Part shown: in pieces, positions 1,674-4,453 of the stretch
Layout: every line of letters starts with the position of its first letter
Numbering within the stretch: the first letter of the stretch is position 1
IMG/VR virus record: IMGVR_UViG_2740892370_000009
DNA length: 4,707 nt
Reading direction: 5' to 3' (one strand)
DNA from: a virus
Taxonomy: Duplodnaviria; Heunggongvirae; Uroviricota; Caudoviricetes
Notes under the pieces: generated by a model
Database searches by the model: none
What the model was told of the DNA's origin: nothing
The model's input: the letters and a program-made list of their open reading frames with translations, nothing else
Program-made: the position numbers and the translations under genes

Positions 1674-2207
1674 ATGAGCAGGAAACTCCGCTATGGTTTA
1701 TCGGCTGCCGTTCTGGCGCTGATTGCCGCAGGTGCTTCTGCGCCTGAAATCCTCGACCAGTTTCTGGATGAAAAGGAAGGTAACCACACCACGGCATACC
1801 GTGATGGTGCGGGTATCTGGACCATCTGTCGTGGTGCCATTCTGGTGGATGGTAAACCTGTCGTTCCGGGCATGAAGTTGTCGAAGGAAAAATGCGACCG
1901 GGTTAACGCCATTGAGCGTGATAAGGCGCTGGCATGGGTGGCGAAAAACATCAAAGTGCCACTGACTGACCCCCAGAAAGCGGGTATTGCGTCATTCTGT
2001 CCTTACAACATTGGCCCAGGTAAGTGTTTCCCGTCGACGTTTTATAAACGAATTAATGCAGGAGATCGAAAAGGTGCCTGCGAAGCGATTCGCTGGTGGA
2101 TTAAGGACGGTGGCAGAGACTGCCGTATTCGCTCAAATAACTGTTATGGTCAGGTATCCCGTCGTGACCAGGAGAGCGCTCTGGCGTGCTGGGGAATCGA
2201 CAGATAA
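1674..2207 (+). CDS. R: SAR (signal-anchor-release) endolysin, T4-lysozyme-like muramidase (GH24), phage 21 R21 type
   Basis: RBS GGAGAG upstream of ATG 1674. N-terminus MSRKLRYGLSAAVLALIAAGASA is a basic cap plus an Ala/Gly-rich weakly hydrophobic segment, i.e. a SAR domain. Glu35, Asp44 and Thr50 (EGNHTTAYRDGAGIWT) fall exactly at the T4-lysozyme/R21 catalytic triad positions. There is no Cys in the SAR segment, which suggests the R21-type mechanism and not the P1 Lyz disulfide-isomerisation type. Stop TAA 2205-2207. Confidence 0.92.
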   Translation: MSRKLRYGLSAAVLALIAAGASAPEILDQFLDEKEGNHTTAYRDGAGIWTICRGAILVDGKPVVPGMKLSKEKCDRVNAIERDKALAWVAKNIKVPLTDPQKAGIASFCPYNIGPGKCFPSTFYKRINAGDRKGACEAIRWWIKDGGRDCRIRSNNCYGQVSRRDQESALACWGIDR

Positions 2208-2315
2208 GCAGAATATTTTGCTGAAAAATGACGTTGGCCAGCGCGGGCGGATAACACGAAATCCTGCGAACTGGCAAAATGTAAGTGAATAAAGTTAGGC
2301 AGATTATTTCACGCA

Positions 2316-2347
2316 GAGGCACCGTAATGGTGCCTTTGTCATTTCTG
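2316..2347 (+). terminator. Terminator-like hairpin in the R-ant intergenic region
   Basis: AGGCACC (2317-2323) pairs with GGTGCCT (2329-2335) around loop GTAAT, with a possible extra G-U pair (2316/2336), followed by the U-rich tract TTGTCATTTCTG. The T-run is interrupted, so termination efficiency is uncertain. Confidence 0.35.
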
Positions 2348-2481
2348 CGCTTCGCACAAGCGTAAATAAACCAAAGAACCTTTCAGGATGAGCCCTGGTG
2401 GATAACCGGCAGTGGTCTGGTTAACCCTCTTTGGGCTGGTTATTCCTGTGCGCAGGGTTCATCACTAAAAGGAAATAACCG

Positions 2482-3051
2482 ATGAATATGATGACCGTGC
2501 CGTTTCACGGCGATTCTCTTTATGTGGTTAACCATAACGGCGAACCATACGTTCCCATGAAACCTGTCGTTGCGGGGATGGGGCTGGCCTGGCAATCACA
2601 GTTGGCTAAGTTAAGACAGCGTTTTGCGTCAACTATAACGGAAATCGTTATGGTTGCTGAGGATGGGAAACGACGCAATATGGTGTCCCTGCCGCTTCGA
2701 AAACTTGCAGGCTGGTTACAAACCATCAATCCCAACAAAGTAAAACCCGAAATCCGCGGCAAGGTAATCCAGTATCAGGAAGAGTGTGACGATGTTCTCT
2801 ATGAATACTGGACGAAGGGTTTTGTCGTTAATCCCCGTCGAATGAGTGTGATGGAAGAACTCAATCAGGCTTGCGCTGACATGAAACGGGATAAAAACAT
2901 TGCCAGTGTGTTTGCTACCGGGCTGAATGAGTGGAAACAGGTTAAATCCGCGCATGTATCAAAAATCCGCACATTGATAAACGAAGCGAATCTGCTGATT
3001 GATTTTGTCCTGGCTGATACAGACAAAGGGAAAATAACAAAGGCGGATTGA
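2482..3051 (+). CDS. Phage antirepressor-like protein (Ant N-terminal-domain-like, AntA/P22_AR_N-type), 189 aa, embedded between endolysin and spanin genes
   Basis: RBS AAGGAA (2469-2474) 7 nt upstream of ATG 2482. Soluble protein with no hydrophobic segments. The N-terminal motif MTVPFHGDSLYVV..GEPYVPMKPVVAGMGLAW..QLAKL is what I recall for the N-terminal domain of phage antirepressor (Ant) proteins, and this gene position (between R and Rz) is known from Stx-type prophages. The family call is from memory, not a computed search. Confidence 0.75.
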   Translation: MNMMTVPFHGDSLYVVNHNGEPYVPMKPVVAGMGLAWQSQLAKLRQRFASTITEIVMVAEDGKRRNMVSLPLRKLAGWLQTINPNKVKPEIRGKVIQYQEECDDVLYEYWTKGFVVNPRRMSVMEELNQACADMKRDKNIASVFATGLNEWKQVKSAHVSKIRTLINEANLLIDFVLADTDKGKITKAD

Positions 3052-3200
3052 TGGAGTGGTGGCTAATGATATCGGATAAACTCATAACGCTGGCGAAGAT
3101 CCTCTGTGTAATCGTCGGCATTTCATTTTTAGTCATTCTGGTTGCCATTTTCTTTTCCACCGCTTGGCGAGTCCTGACGTTATCGGGACTGGTGGGGTGA
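3051..3200 (+). CDS. Candidate small hydrophobic membrane protein (49 aa; alternative start at ATG 3066 gives 44 aa)
   Basis: Its ATG (3051-3053) overlaps the ant stop TGA (3049-3051) in an ATGA coupling arrangement. Hand translation: MEWWLMISDKLITLAKILCVIVGISFLVILVAIFFSTAWRVLTLSGLVG, stop TGA 3198-3200, 7 nt before the Rz start. One strongly hydrophobic helix. It fills what would otherwise be a 156-nt gap in a tightly packed cassette. Below the ORF-track size cut-off. Confidence 0.4.
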   Translation: MEWWLMISDKLITLAKILCVIVGISFLVILVAIFFSTAWRVLTLSGLVG

Positions 3201-3207
3201 AAGAGAG

Positions 3208-3675
3208 ATGAACCGTGTTCTGTGTGTGGTGATTATTGTCCTGCTGGTAGCCTGTGGTGCACTTAGTCTGGGGCTGAATCATTACCGCGATAACGCCATA
3301 ACCTACAAAGAGCAGCGCGATAAAAAAGTCAGTGAGCTGGAGCTGGCAAATGCAACCATTACTGATATGCAGCAGCGCCAGCGTGATGTTGCTGCACTTG
3401 ATGCCAGATACTCGAGGGAATTAGCCGATGCGAGAGCTGAAAATGAAACTCTGCGTGCTGATGTTGCCGCTGGTCGTAAGCGCCTGCGCATCAACGCCAA
3501 CTGTCCAGGCTCCTTGCGTAAAGCCCCCATCACCTCCGGCGTGGATAATGCAACCGGTCCCCGACTGGCAGAAGCCGCTGAACGGGATTATTTCATCCTC
3601 AGAGAACGGCTGATGGCAATGCAGAAGCAACTGGAAGGAGCACAGGAATATATCCGTACCCAGTGTATACCGTGA
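3208..3675 (+). CDS. Rz: Rz inner-membrane spanin (i-spanin), 155 aa
   Basis: N-terminal transmembrane helix (MNRVLCVVIIVLLVACGALSLGL) followed by a long charged, predicted coiled-coil periplasmic domain (QRQRDVAALDARYSRELADARAENETLRADVAAGRKRLRI...). Contains an out-of-frame embedded lipoprotein gene, as lambda Rz does. Stop TGA 3673-3675. Confidence 0.9.
   Translation: MNRVLCVVIIVLLVACGALSLGLNHYRDNAITYKEQRDKKVSELELANATITDMQQRQRDVAALDARYSRELADARAENETLRADVAAGRKRLRINANCPGSLRKAPITSGVDNATGPRLAEAAERDYFILRERLMAMQKQLEGAQEYIRTQCIP
3428..3613 (+). CDS. Rz1: Rz1 outer-membrane lipoprotein spanin (o-spanin), 61 aa, embedded in the +1 frame of Rz
   Basis: MRELKMKLCVLMLPLVVSACAS has a signal peptide with lipobox V-S-A-C. 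The mature part is Pro-rich (CVKPPSPPAWIMQPVPDWQKPLNGIISSSENG), closely resembling lambda Rz1 as I remember it. It lies entirely inside Rz (3208-3675) in a different frame. Translation may start at ATG 3428 or ATG 3443. Confidence 0.85.
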   Translation: MRELKMKLCVLMLPLVVSACASTPTVQAPCVKPPSPPAWIMQPVPDWQKPLNGIISSSENG

Positions 3676-4138
3676 TGTTTTGTTACGAAGGTGTTACTGG
3701 TAACGTTAAGGTAATTTAACAAAGAGTCAGTTCCGGACTTTATAGTGTGCTCAGTTCATGGCCAAAAACGATTTCTGTGATAAATATTTTGAATATTATT
3801 TACAGGTAAATGGAGTGGGGCGCATGGATAGAAATATTACAATAGAGTATGAAGTATATGCCCGTATTGTATGGGCAGAGAAGGCAAAAACATGGTAATT
3901 CCGTGTGTTGCCATGATACCTGATTGGCAGAATTGTTGTTTGGTTTTGAGTATATAGTCAGCGTCTTTTGTTCGGTAATTGCTCTTTCAATTAAAATGCC
4001 AGATATGATTTGCTTTTCTTTGTTGTTTAGTTTTTTTGTATATTATTTTTATTGTTTTTATATAATTAGTTTTTTATTGTTGTCTTATTAAGGACGGTAA
4101 ATTCAGGATGGCAGTCTGTAGATAAACGGAGGTTACTT
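3676..4138. promoter_or_regulatory. AT-rich non-coding island (about 460 bp) upstream of the PerC-like gene; probable promoter / H-NS-type silencing region of a horizontally acquired moron
   Basis: No ORF of 61 aa or more on either strand. Composition shifts sharply from the flanking genes: 4021-4080 has only 7 G/C in 60 nt. Contains T-tract/A-tract repeats (e.g. TTTTTATTGTT recurring at about 4044 and about 4071) typical of curved DNA. The downstream gene has its own strong SD. Exact -35/-10 boxes cannot be assigned confidently by eye. Confidence 0.45.
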
Positions 4139-4453
4139 ATGCTACATGATCACCTGGCAGAATGTCTGGAGAAAAAAGGACTGTACCGGAGAGCAGCTGA
4201 ACGATGGGCAAAAGTGATGGTACAGCTAAGTGATGACCAGAAAAGAAAAGTGGCGGCACAGAAACGAGCAGAGTGTTTGCGTAAGGCGCGCCGGACTCCG
4301 GTTTCACCGGTGAACCTGACCGAAATAAAACAAGCGGTCAACAGACTACATTCTGAGTTGGGAATGGGATTTGAAGAGCGGCGGGTATTCCGACGATATA
4401 AAGGGACAGGAGAACAGAATACGTCCGGAAACGCGCGGTCAAAAAAATGCTAA
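4139..4453 (+). CDS. PerC-family-like transcriptional regulator (Pch-like prophage-encoded regulator), 104 aa, basic
   Basis: Strong RBS GGAGG (4128-4132) 6 nt upstream of ATG 4139. Small, highly basic protein (MLHDHLAECLEKKGLYRRAAERWAKVMVQLSDDQKRKVAAQKRAECLRKARR...). Size, charge and the RAAERWAKV-type N-terminal motif match what I recall of PerC/Pch regulators, which in enterohaemorrhagic E. coli are carried on lambdoid prophages downstream of the lysis genes. Stop TAA 4451-4453. Product assignment is moderate confidence; the CDS itself is well supported. Confidence 0.7.
   Translation: MLHDHLAECLEKKGLYRRAAERWAKVMVQLSDDQKRKVAAQKRAECLRKARRTPVSPVNLTEIKQAVNRLHSELGMGFEERRVFRRYKGTGEQNTSGNARSKKC

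Follow-up and report, generated by a model that had tools for sequence, protein, structure and literature searches.

The lysis region on a 4,707-nt stretch of phage DNA (IMG/VR record IMGVR_UViG_2740892370_000009; this whole stretch is called the window below) raises the question of why a gene resembling the P22 antirepressor gene ant lies between the endolysin gene R and the spanin gene Rz, and of what the noncoding gap in front of it encodes. A first account of the locus, the sequence-only reading, had placed a 189-amino-acid (aa) open reading frame (ORF) there behind a 274-nt gap; this layout was confirmed, with R ending at 2207 and the ORF running from 2482 to 3051. The interpretation favored here, to which we assign a probability of about 0.6, is that positions 2294-3051 are a swappable late-operon cassette in which a gene of the Bro network of phage DNA-binding proteins is throttled by a structured RNA leader. 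The elements on which this interpretation turns are the following.

2208-2481, + strand: gap between R and ant, 274 nt.
2208-2293, + strand: spacer after R, common to ant-less relatives (blastn against L237 and L238) and outside the swapped module.
2294-3051, + strand: proposed swappable cassette, comprising terminator-like hairpin, P0, leader and ant ORF; left border 2293/2294, right border 3069 or 3205.
2313-2346, + strand: terminator-like hairpin (inverted repeat I5), stem 2314-2323 / 2329-2338, loop GUAAU.
2347-2363, + strand: small hairpin P0 (GCGCUU-CGCAC-AAGCGU), -7.2 kcal/mol.
2363-2496, + strand: conserved structured RNA leader, match to covariance model R1; folded core 2376-2473.
2387-2397 / 2453-2463, + strand: helix P1 (GAUGAGCCCUG / CAGGGUUCAUC), from the RNAalifold consensus.
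2400-2410 / 2435-2446, + strand: helix P2 (GGAUAACCGGC / GCUGGUUAUUCC).
2468-2473, + strand: Shine-Dalgarno sequence AAAGGA; its predicted partner is CCUUU 2379-2383, at the foot of the leader hairpin.
2482-3051, + strand: ant (d_ant) ORF, 189 aa, ATG start; P22_AR_N and ORF11CD3 domains, Bro network.

Folding analyses of the gap as RNA gave -97.6 kcal/mol, against -75.6 +/- 4.6 kcal/mol for shuffled sequences (z = -4.8), and none of 200 shuffles folded as well. The leader within it was recognized by R1, which was built from 30 leader copies and included no E. coli or Stx-type (Shiga toxin phage) sequences. The model nevertheless matched the window at 2363-2496 over its full length (model positions 1-137; 47.4 bits, E=1.5e-12), on the + strand only, and found the Salmonella and Photorhabdus copies L003 and L004, likewise outside the training set, at E about 1e-11 to 1e-12. 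The window leader represents a divergent subtype with ATGAGCCC and a longer P2. The sequence-only reading had called the upstream region structured, and this was borne out both by the fold and by covariation over 34 leader sequences.

The predicted structure of the leader is one long irregular hairpin composed of a basal helix, P1 and P2, as obtained with RNAalifold from a MAFFT alignment of 34 diverse leaders. P1 was paired in 97% of cases across the 34 leaders and showed compensatory changes at its inner three pairs, while P2 carried most of the covariation signal, with both sides changing in 9 of 11 pairs and 93.7% of cells paired. Over the whole alignment 94.6% of cells were paired, 15 of the 25 pairs changed on both sides, and 59 cells held double changes. 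None of 500 shuffles reached any of these measures, and sliding the partners by 1-3 columns reduced pairing to 33-53%. About 13% of paired cells were G-U, and the reverse-strand model scored 23 bits against 134; together these two results indicate that the constraint acts on the + strand RNA. In most members the consensus fold was also the one of minimum free energy (mean -40.5 kcal/mol). Three blocks, AUGAGCC, GGGCUG and GGUUCAU, were nearly invariant, and the apical loop was conserved yet unpaired.

Significantly for expression, the minimum-free-energy structure placed the ribosome-binding signal of ant in the base of the hairpin. The Shine-Dalgarno sequence (AAGGA, 7 nt 5' of the ATG at 2482) falls in a predicted duplex of CCUUU 2379-2383 with AAAGG 2468-2472; the pairing probability of its AGG was 1.0 in the window and averaged 0.81 over the 34 leaders. 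The distance from the end of the leader motif to the start codon was 17-24 nt across the family.

The leader corresponds to no family in Rfam 15: no match to it was obtained at E<=1 in the whole window or at E<=10 in 2200-2520 and in the homologous region of L117 (3300-3650), and at the gathering threshold no family overlapped the leader in 15 related loci, where the only matches, all away from the leader, were to isrJ, isrI, isrN, SIB and int-alpA. The C4 and isrK models likewise gave no match in any of these searches, and a C4/CI/isrK-type immunity RNA was dropped as a candidate on that account. A two-state switch, in which the 5' strand GGAUAACCGG would pair with either a proximal or a distal copy, was retained as a minor possibility only. 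It is disfavored because the proximal hairpin, although 92% pairable, shows compensatory change at only two pairs and in 33 of 34 members loses about 7 kcal/mol in stability against the distal one. The near-invariant AUGAGCC opens a mini-ORF, ATG AGC CCT GGT GGA TAA (2388-2405, + strand) in the window and ATG AGC CTT TGA in most other copies. A leader peptide was rejected, the mini-ORF having no usable Shine-Dalgarno spacing and its ATG being absent from the Photorhabdus copy L004; it is probably not translated. Inspection of the leader by eye for the integration host factor (IHF) site WATCAANNNNTTR gave no match.

The remaining elements of the gap were also recovered. The terminator-like hairpin proposed earlier is present as CAGAGGCACC-GUAAU-GGUGCCUUUG at 2314-2338. 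Its energy is about -18.8 kcal/mol, and the tail behind it (UUUGUCAUUUCU, to 2346) is rich in U but not an unbroken run; a simple consensus terminator scan did not flag the hairpin. At nearly all related loci a G+C-rich hairpin with a T-run occupies the same position. At the position of P0 the other loci hold GCGC..GCGC, GUGCA..UGCAC, UUGCUC..GAGCAA, CUGCCA..UGGCAG or ACGCC..GGCGU, which by eye reads as compensatory variation. The iterated motifs described earlier, GGATAACCGGC at 2400-2410, CTGGTTAACC at 2417-2426 and GCTGGTTATTCC at 2435-2446, were identified respectively as the 5' strand of P2, a proximal look-alike (CUGGUUAACC) and the true 3' partner of that strand.

Two side observations concern the gap and its counterparts at other loci. 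A direct repeat (AGCGCGGGCGGATAAC 2240-2255 / AGCCCTGGTGGATAAC 2391-2406, + strand; 81% identity, 151 nt apart) joins the spacer after R with the 5' strand of P1 and P2; its upstream copy also occurs in ant-less relatives, and the repeat may be due to chance. In L133 an Rfam isrJ match (54 bits; 2478-2553, - strand) lies about 70 nt 5' of a leader copy, and in L117 a weak isrJ-like match (E=0.038; 3546-3610, - strand) lies 5' of the leader; the terminator hairpin that stands in front of many leaders may represent the 3' terminus of small RNAs of the IsrJ type.

The borders of the module were defined by two ant-less relatives, Stx1_9793 (L237) and PhiR12_1 (L238). In blastn comparisons both shared window positions 1900-2293; homology from inside R stopped at 2293 and resumed at 3205, just 5' of Rz, in Stx1_9793 and at 3069 in PhiR12_1. 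Where the window has the ant module, both relatives contain a different terminator hairpin, AAAAACCCCG...CGGGGTTTTGTGTTT, together with a small ORF for a hydrophobic protein. This break and return of homology identifies the R-Rz junction as a cassette site at which ant is swapped in or absent among relatives, and upholds the earlier description of ant as an insertion in the lysis cassette. Because homology runs to 2293 without ant, the first 86 nt of the gap (2208-2293) belong to the flank of R and not to ant. The ant ORF is followed directly by a small membrane ORF and then by Rz. The layout is not that of a moron, an autonomous accessory gene between a promoter and a terminator of its own, since a consensus scan found no sigma-70-like promoter and the terminator-like hairpin lies 5' of ant, not 3'.

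Relatives of the whole protein showed that leader and gene travel together across unrelated lysis genes. Full-length Ant relatives (41-76% identity) occurred in six genera, all beside lysis genes, and the endolysins and spanins next to them belong to unrelated families. The gene orders are as follows.

Salmonella: holin, holin, unrelated 183-aa endolysin, gap, Ant, small lipoprotein.
Providencia: holin, 157-aa endolysin, gap, Ant, Rz/Rz1.
Photorhabdus and Yersinia: holin, R, Rz/Rz1, gap, Ant.
Symbiopectobacterium: S, R, Rz/Rz1, Bro-like gene, Ant.
Serratia symbiotica (L026): degraded Ant copy between R and Rz.

In each relative the noncoding leader region consists of a G+C-rich hairpin with a T-run followed by a conserved element of ~100 nt that extends to the Shine-Dalgarno sequence. 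Ant relatives that share the N-terminal domain only, in other contexts, lack the leader. The cassette layout of the window was found again at the Salmonella, Photorhabdus, Providencia, Yersinia and Symbiopectobacterium loci, and also in P22.

In P22 the cargo is rha (orf201), in the order 13-19-15/Rz1, terminator, P0, leader, rha. The site in the late operon at the lysis cassette, the succession of terminator, P0, leader, Shine-Dalgarno sequence and gene, and the RNA family (R1 scores 127 bits in P22) are the same as in the window, and the gene belongs to the same domain-shuffling network. The two differ in the N-terminal domain, which is Phage_pRha in Rha and P22_AR_N in the window protein, and in position, the P22 cassette sitting after Rz whereas that of the window splits R from Rz. 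To judge from sequence, the window cassette is the direct counterpart of the leader-rha cassette 3' of the P22 lysis genes. A Rha phenotype is reported as IHF-dependent in a work cited in PMC4936722. The curated P22 record BK000583 (L239, 1776-1845) has rha begin at a GTG within the leader's apical loop. An ATG 23 codons further downstream is the likelier start, since it follows a GAAGG Shine-Dalgarno sequence and yields the N-terminus MNELIANHDFDFRQ... typical of the family; the annotated start is probably too early.

The P22 homologue also provided evidence that the leader RNA accumulates. P22F, an 89-nt small RNA listed with 'no known function' in a 2026 survey of P22 infection (PMC13397905), was recovered there at 2054 reads per million in the cytosol and validated by reverse transcription PCR. 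It begins with AAUGGGCC, stops at GAAGGCA 6 nt short of the rha start codon, and matches the P22 leader exactly in sequence, so the leader RNA exists and is stable in vivo in this homologue. A literature search found P22F mentioned as an unexplained small RNA and found no description of the leader family, its structure or its association with genes.

The distribution of the leader was surveyed with a DNA pattern (ATGAGCCT..GGGCTG..GGTTCAT) taken from the alignment of relatives, which excludes the E. coli subtype. It matched at least 120 stretches in IMG/VR, 97 of them distinct among the matches listed. Behind 54 distinct leaders the Pfam domains encoded were Phage_pRha (20), KilA-N (16), ORF11CD3 (15, C-terminal), P22_AR_N (5), HNH_3 (5), P63C (4), Bro-N (3), AP2 (2) and ANT (1); ORF11CD3 was found there with N-terminal domains other than P22_AR_N. 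Among its carriers already known are rha of P22 and BTP1, phage ES18, and KilA-N genes in HK544, 2851 and Stx2-1717. For at least 60% of 124 leader copies a lysis gene from a small panel lay <=3.5 kb upstream on the same strand. The cassette is a general feature of enterobacterial lambdoid late operons, and ant of the Stx phages is one cargo among several. The sequence-only reading was correct that the upstream elements are structured, but they are not ant's own: they belong to a conserved leader cassette with which genes other than Ant are furnished as well.

Tandem leader-gene cassettes on one strand, with a leader copy for each gene, were seen in L005 (2955-3094 and 3880-4015), L133, L146 and L147; examples are a Bro-like gene followed by Ant in Symbiopectobacterium and an HNH gene followed by a Rha gene in L133 and L147. 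Outside the window, a weak R1 match in L001 (1585-1707, + strand; 26.7 bits, E=1.5e-4), either a degenerate copy or chance, sits just 5' of a TerB-family gene behind the prophage tRNA cluster.

These results suggest the following model. No sigma-70 consensus promoter was detected in the whole window, where 4.9 would be expected by chance, and 2335-2385 read by eye offered only poor hexamers. With no detectable promoter and a terminator-like hairpin upstream, the probable source of transcription is the Q-antiterminated late promoter, and ant would be transcribed only as part of that late transcript together with S, R and Rz. The leader would fold into the long hairpin of P1, P2 and basal helix (about -40 kcal/mol), and since this base pairs the Shine-Dalgarno sequence the message would be made but translated only weakly or conditionally. 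On these folding predictions the leader probably keeps downstream genes from free translation. The same leader stands before interchangeable cargo (Rha, KilA-N, P22_AR_N, Bro-N, HNH), so the factor that opens or cuts it would be generic, a host or phage factor and not the downstream protein. The invariant AUGAGCC/GGGCUG/GGUUCAU blocks and the conserved apical loop suggest a specific partner.

Stable hairpins that sequester the ribosome-binding site of phage genes are familiar from the lambda N leader with its RNase III site and from free-standing and intron-borne T4 homing-endonuclease genes such as I-TevI; there they hold down the translation of potentially harmful genes within long transcripts and are relieved by RNase III or by an internal late promoter. 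The present leader resembles them in being a stable hairpin that includes the Shine-Dalgarno sequence, with no sequence relation, and the T4 genes offer a further parallel in that HNH endonuclease genes are among the leader's cargo. Control of antirepressor and Bro-network genes at the RNA level is the rule in the P22 sar, P1/P7 c4 and P4 CI systems (PMC12197685, PMC10111431), and the P1 c4 and P4 CI RNAs that lie within Bro-network genes are recognized by the C4 and isrK models (PMC10111431). The window differs from these systems: ant lies between R and Rz of the late operon and not in an immI-type region with Mnt/Arc and sar, and no antisense promoter, sar-like RNA or C4-like RNA was detected in the window, where the putative control element is a cis hairpin in the 5' leader. 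In Gifsy-1, anrP is an antirepressor-like gene that is transcribed but translationally silent through RNA structure (PMC4825925). The isrK-orf45-anrP-isrJ region of Gifsy-1 is like the present locus in having an antirepressor-like gene next to the Q/late region, and isrJ-type terminators stand 5' of some leaders (L133; weakly L117). Activation in Gifsy-1 depends on an upstream ORF and on a short RNA acting in trans, for neither of which an equivalent was identified at the window ant, and unlike Gifsy-1 the window and related loci have no match to the Rfam isrK and C4 models.

The identity of the cargo protein was examined next to that of its leader. Pfam matched P22_AR_N (PF10547) to residues 5-113 (8.5e-45) and ORF11CD3 to residues 122-164 (2.6e-6), and phrog_524, 'anti-repressor Ant', matched at 3e-112 over profile positions 7-210 of 317, so similarity to an antirepressor family is significant in profile hidden Markov model searches. 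Both Pfam domains are on the 10-family list of the Bro network, a set of domain-shuffling phage DNA-binding proteins (Iyer et al. 2002 and the family list of PMC10111431). P22 Ant aligned to residues 1-126 only (48% identity); by Pfam no P22_AR_C domain was found in the 189-aa protein, which also falls short of the ~300 aa of a full Ant. Accordingly, the Ant-like label holds for the N-terminal domain and does not extend to P22_AR_C. No real match was found among solved structures by sequence, and no model in the defence-system and NCBIfam libraries matched the protein.

The protein is 94-100% identical to the ant/d_ant products of 933W, Stx2 phage I, VT2-Sakai, Phi24B and 7888. At E<=1e-5, 2359 relatives were found in a large database. 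The best 120 of the 2359 all had P22_AR_N plus ORF11CD3, and almost all of these measured 174-199 aa; their genera are Escherichia, Salmonella, Photorhabdus, Xenorhabdus, Serratia, Providencia, Proteus, Sodalis, Arsenophonus and Hamiltonella. Among E. coli alleles the ratio of nonsynonymous to synonymous substitution rates (dN/dS) was 0.12-0.23, and nearly all of 80 IMG/VR copies matched residues 1-189, few (L051, L052, L116) being shorter. By its domains and substitution rates the protein is a member of a conserved ~188-aa two-domain family under purifying selection, and the uniform architecture and dN/dS argue that the gene is neither a truncated Ant, as the sequence-only reading had thought possible, nor a decaying remnant. 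The AlphaFold2 model (mean pLDDT, predicted local distance difference test, 74; N-terminal domain ~80-87) consists of an alpha/beta domain (residues 16-112) and a single long helix (123-179), a predicted fold that may resemble a KilA-N/APSES-like DNA-binding domain followed by one long helix.

A true antirepressor, made late with the lysis genes and binding CI-type repressors of the same or co-resident prophages, is an unlikely alternative to the throttled cassette; it corresponds to the cross-talk between prophages put forward in the sequence-only reading. In its favor are the 48% identity to the N-terminal 126 residues of an authentic Ant, the many records that annotate the gene as Ant, and the two (median) to 11 copies of the region in genomes of enterohaemorrhagic E. 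coli, and trans-acting antirepressors that coordinate prophages are known in Salmonella (PMC3121763). The absence of the P22_AR_C half and the predicted DNA-binding fold speak against it, as do the Rha, KilA-N and HNH genes that use the same leader and position, and derepression of a neighbouring prophage as the cell lyses would bring little obvious benefit. Nor does the experimental literature support it. Fogg et al. (PMC3064807) made their ant knockout of Phi24B in a different gene, one that lies before the qut site, upstream of Q; a literature search found no direct functional test of the lysis-cassette ant, and the Phi24B and Salmonella prophage transcriptome papers, also searched by locus tags, held nothing on its transcription. 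The lysis-cassette gene carries the name d_ant in PMC4426718, which proposes it as a target of the 20-nt RNA 24B_1 from complementarity alone. That link is in silico only, and 24B_1 targeting was rejected here, no site or complement with <=3 mismatches being present on either strand of the window. Since a single domain is shared, 'antirepressor' is best regarded as a carried-over name, and on the model of its fold a role as DNA-binding regulator has more support than one as an antirepressor that binds repressors.

About equally improbable is a main role of the leader in RNA processing or as a small RNA in trans, with nucleases cutting the late polycistronic RNA at the hairpin to switch the downstream cistron on or off, or with the excised hairpin acting elsewhere. 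P22F is indeed an abundant, discrete species, the apical loop is strongly conserved while unpaired, and P1 and P2 stack to ~22 bp broken by an asymmetric internal loop, a shape reminiscent of RNase III sites in phages, T7 R1.1 and the lambda N leader among them. The ends of P22F, however, lie in single-stranded flanks and are not staggered over a helix as RNase III leaves them, and a stable hairpin that survives decay would yield the same reads.

Less probable again, and improbable in itself, is that conservation acts on DNA, the leader being a recombination 'linker' or homing site for the swapping of Bro-network/HNH cassettes. Many non-homologous genes do stand behind one leader, HNH endonuclease genes are among them, tandem cassettes occur (L005, L133, L146, L147), and the module border lies just 5' of the cassette. 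Double compensatory changes that keep the helices are needless for a homology linker, however, the ~13% G-U pairs would be C-A mismatches on the other strand, reverse-strand model scores collapse, and the RNA accumulates in vivo; DNA and RNA roles are not mutually exclusive. That ant is a functionless, decaying remnant of a longer Ant can be dismissed almost entirely, because its shortness beside the 300-aa P22 Ant and the degraded Serratia symbiotica copy (L026) are outweighed by a 187-190-aa two-domain architecture uniform over Enterobacterales, by dN/dS and by the near-full length of the IMG/VR copies.

Several points weigh against the favored interpretation of a cassette throttled by its leader. 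The pairing of the Shine-Dalgarno sequence is a thermodynamic prediction only, and the basal pairs, which do not vary, are beyond the reach of covariation. P22F, ending 6 nt before the rha ATG, could be a mere nuclease-resistant decay fragment. A weak or activator-dependent promoter within 2340-2385 could escape a scan for the sigma-70 consensus. Simple occlusion does not explain why the unpaired apical region is conserved (as GCUGGCGAGCC.UCGA.GGG in most members), and this conservation hints at a specific ligand or partner. Finally, the E-values given for R1 are rough, its calibration having been shortened.

The order S-R-ant-Rz itself is already known, being the standard annotated layout of 933W-type Stx phages, and is not the unusual arrangement it had been taken for. 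These phages have the same gene at the same place, and in the gene itself there is no difference; the literature found on it treats the product as a putative antirepressor on sequence grounds only and leaves the leader structure and family undescribed. The window is identical (100% over the 844 bases tested) to prophages of several complete E. coli genomes, from hosts that include an O103:H2 isolate and stool, clinical and cattle isolates, and its lysis region is 96% identical to those of 933W-type phages. A 2.3-kb query spanning S-R-ant-Rz was covered to at least 80% in 258 phage records, among them Stx2 phage I, VT2-Sakai, Min27, BP-4795 and Shigella phages 7888 and 75/02; the Stx2 phage I record labels the gene 'ant ... 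regulation of host cell lysis'. The 844-bp region was covered to at least 80% in 694 of 5426 complete E. coli genomes, with a median of 2 and up to 11 copies per matching genome. The earlier reading is thus an accurate description of a known, ordinary Stx-phage feature, in which 'antirepressor' was over-read and the upstream region is the most interesting part. In the Stx2a phages LC616031-LC616035 and LC727872 the S-to-Rz match falls into two pieces over ~2.9-3.6 kb instead of 1.6-2.3 kb, which suggests an extra insertion of ~1.3 kb, possibly an insertion sequence element.

All genes of the window lie on the + strand; those around the cassette are listed below.

3-749, + strand: NanS-p-type esterase, C-terminal part.
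885-1064, + strand: DUF1378 gene.
1105-1377, + strand: DUF826 gene.
1454-1669, + strand: P21-type class II holin S (Pfam Phage_holin_2_1, 7e-33).
1674-2207, + strand: lysozyme-family endolysin R (Pfam Phage_lysozyme, 3e-24).
3051-3200, + strand: 49-aa hydrophobic ORF MEWWLMISDKLITLAKILCVIVGISFLVILVAIFFSTAWRVLTLSGLVG (phrog_4906, 1.8e-32), annotated in RefSeq.
3208-3675, + strand: spanin Rz (Pfam Phage_lysis, 1e-46).
3428-3613, + strand: Rz1, embedded in Rz (Pfam Rz1, 4e-19).
4139-4453, + strand: PerC-family gene (Pfam, 5e-44).

With a class II holin, a lysozyme-family endolysin and an Rz with embedded Rz1 on one strand, the lysis genes form a P21/933W-type cassette, and the identical locus is annotated in RefSeq. 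R is probably of the signal-arrest-release (SAR) type, judging from its hydrophobic N-terminus and PMC8136144. The ATG of the 49-aa ORF overlaps the ant stop codon (TGATG), and the ORF ends 7 nt 5' of Rz; PhiR12_1 has a homologue without ant, and Stx1_9793 a different small membrane ORF at that place. By this comparison the 49-aa ORF is a separable neighbour outside the ant module, and since a small membrane ORF occupies the same spot with or without ant, a membrane protein just 5' of Rz looks conserved in the cassette. Two observations were made 3' of Rz. The sequence TAACGTTAAG at 3703-3712 (+ strand) equals the first 10 nt of the 20-nt 24B_1 of Phi24B in the same sense, probably by chance, and a very AT-rich stretch at ~3960-4100, 5' of the PerC-family gene, lies between the lysis genes and the prophage HNH and terminase genes.

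What merits attention at this locus is the leader, a strongly covarying RNA present in P22, ES18, HK544, 933W-type Stx phages and >100 viral contigs. It brings the scattered labels 'antirepressor', 'Rha', 'KilA' and 'homing endonuclease' together, as names for the cargoes of a single kind of cassette, and it accounts for some annotation errors, such as the start of P22 rha inside the leader. It also carries a caution, in that 'Ant' in the lysis cassettes of Stx phages is not a demonstrated antirepressor. As a wider and more tentative proposal, possible but short of even odds, the leader would be an uncatalogued, Enterobacterales-wide class of regulatory RNA that gates potentially toxic Bro-network and HNH genes in late operons through a common factor recognizing the AUGAGCC/GGGCUG/GGUUCAU core and the apical loop, and its excised form, P22F, may act in trans. 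Shared post-transcriptional control offers a handle on why such genes are tolerated in late operons and, if true, the leader of Stx phages would time the expression of ant to that of lysis and the release of toxin.

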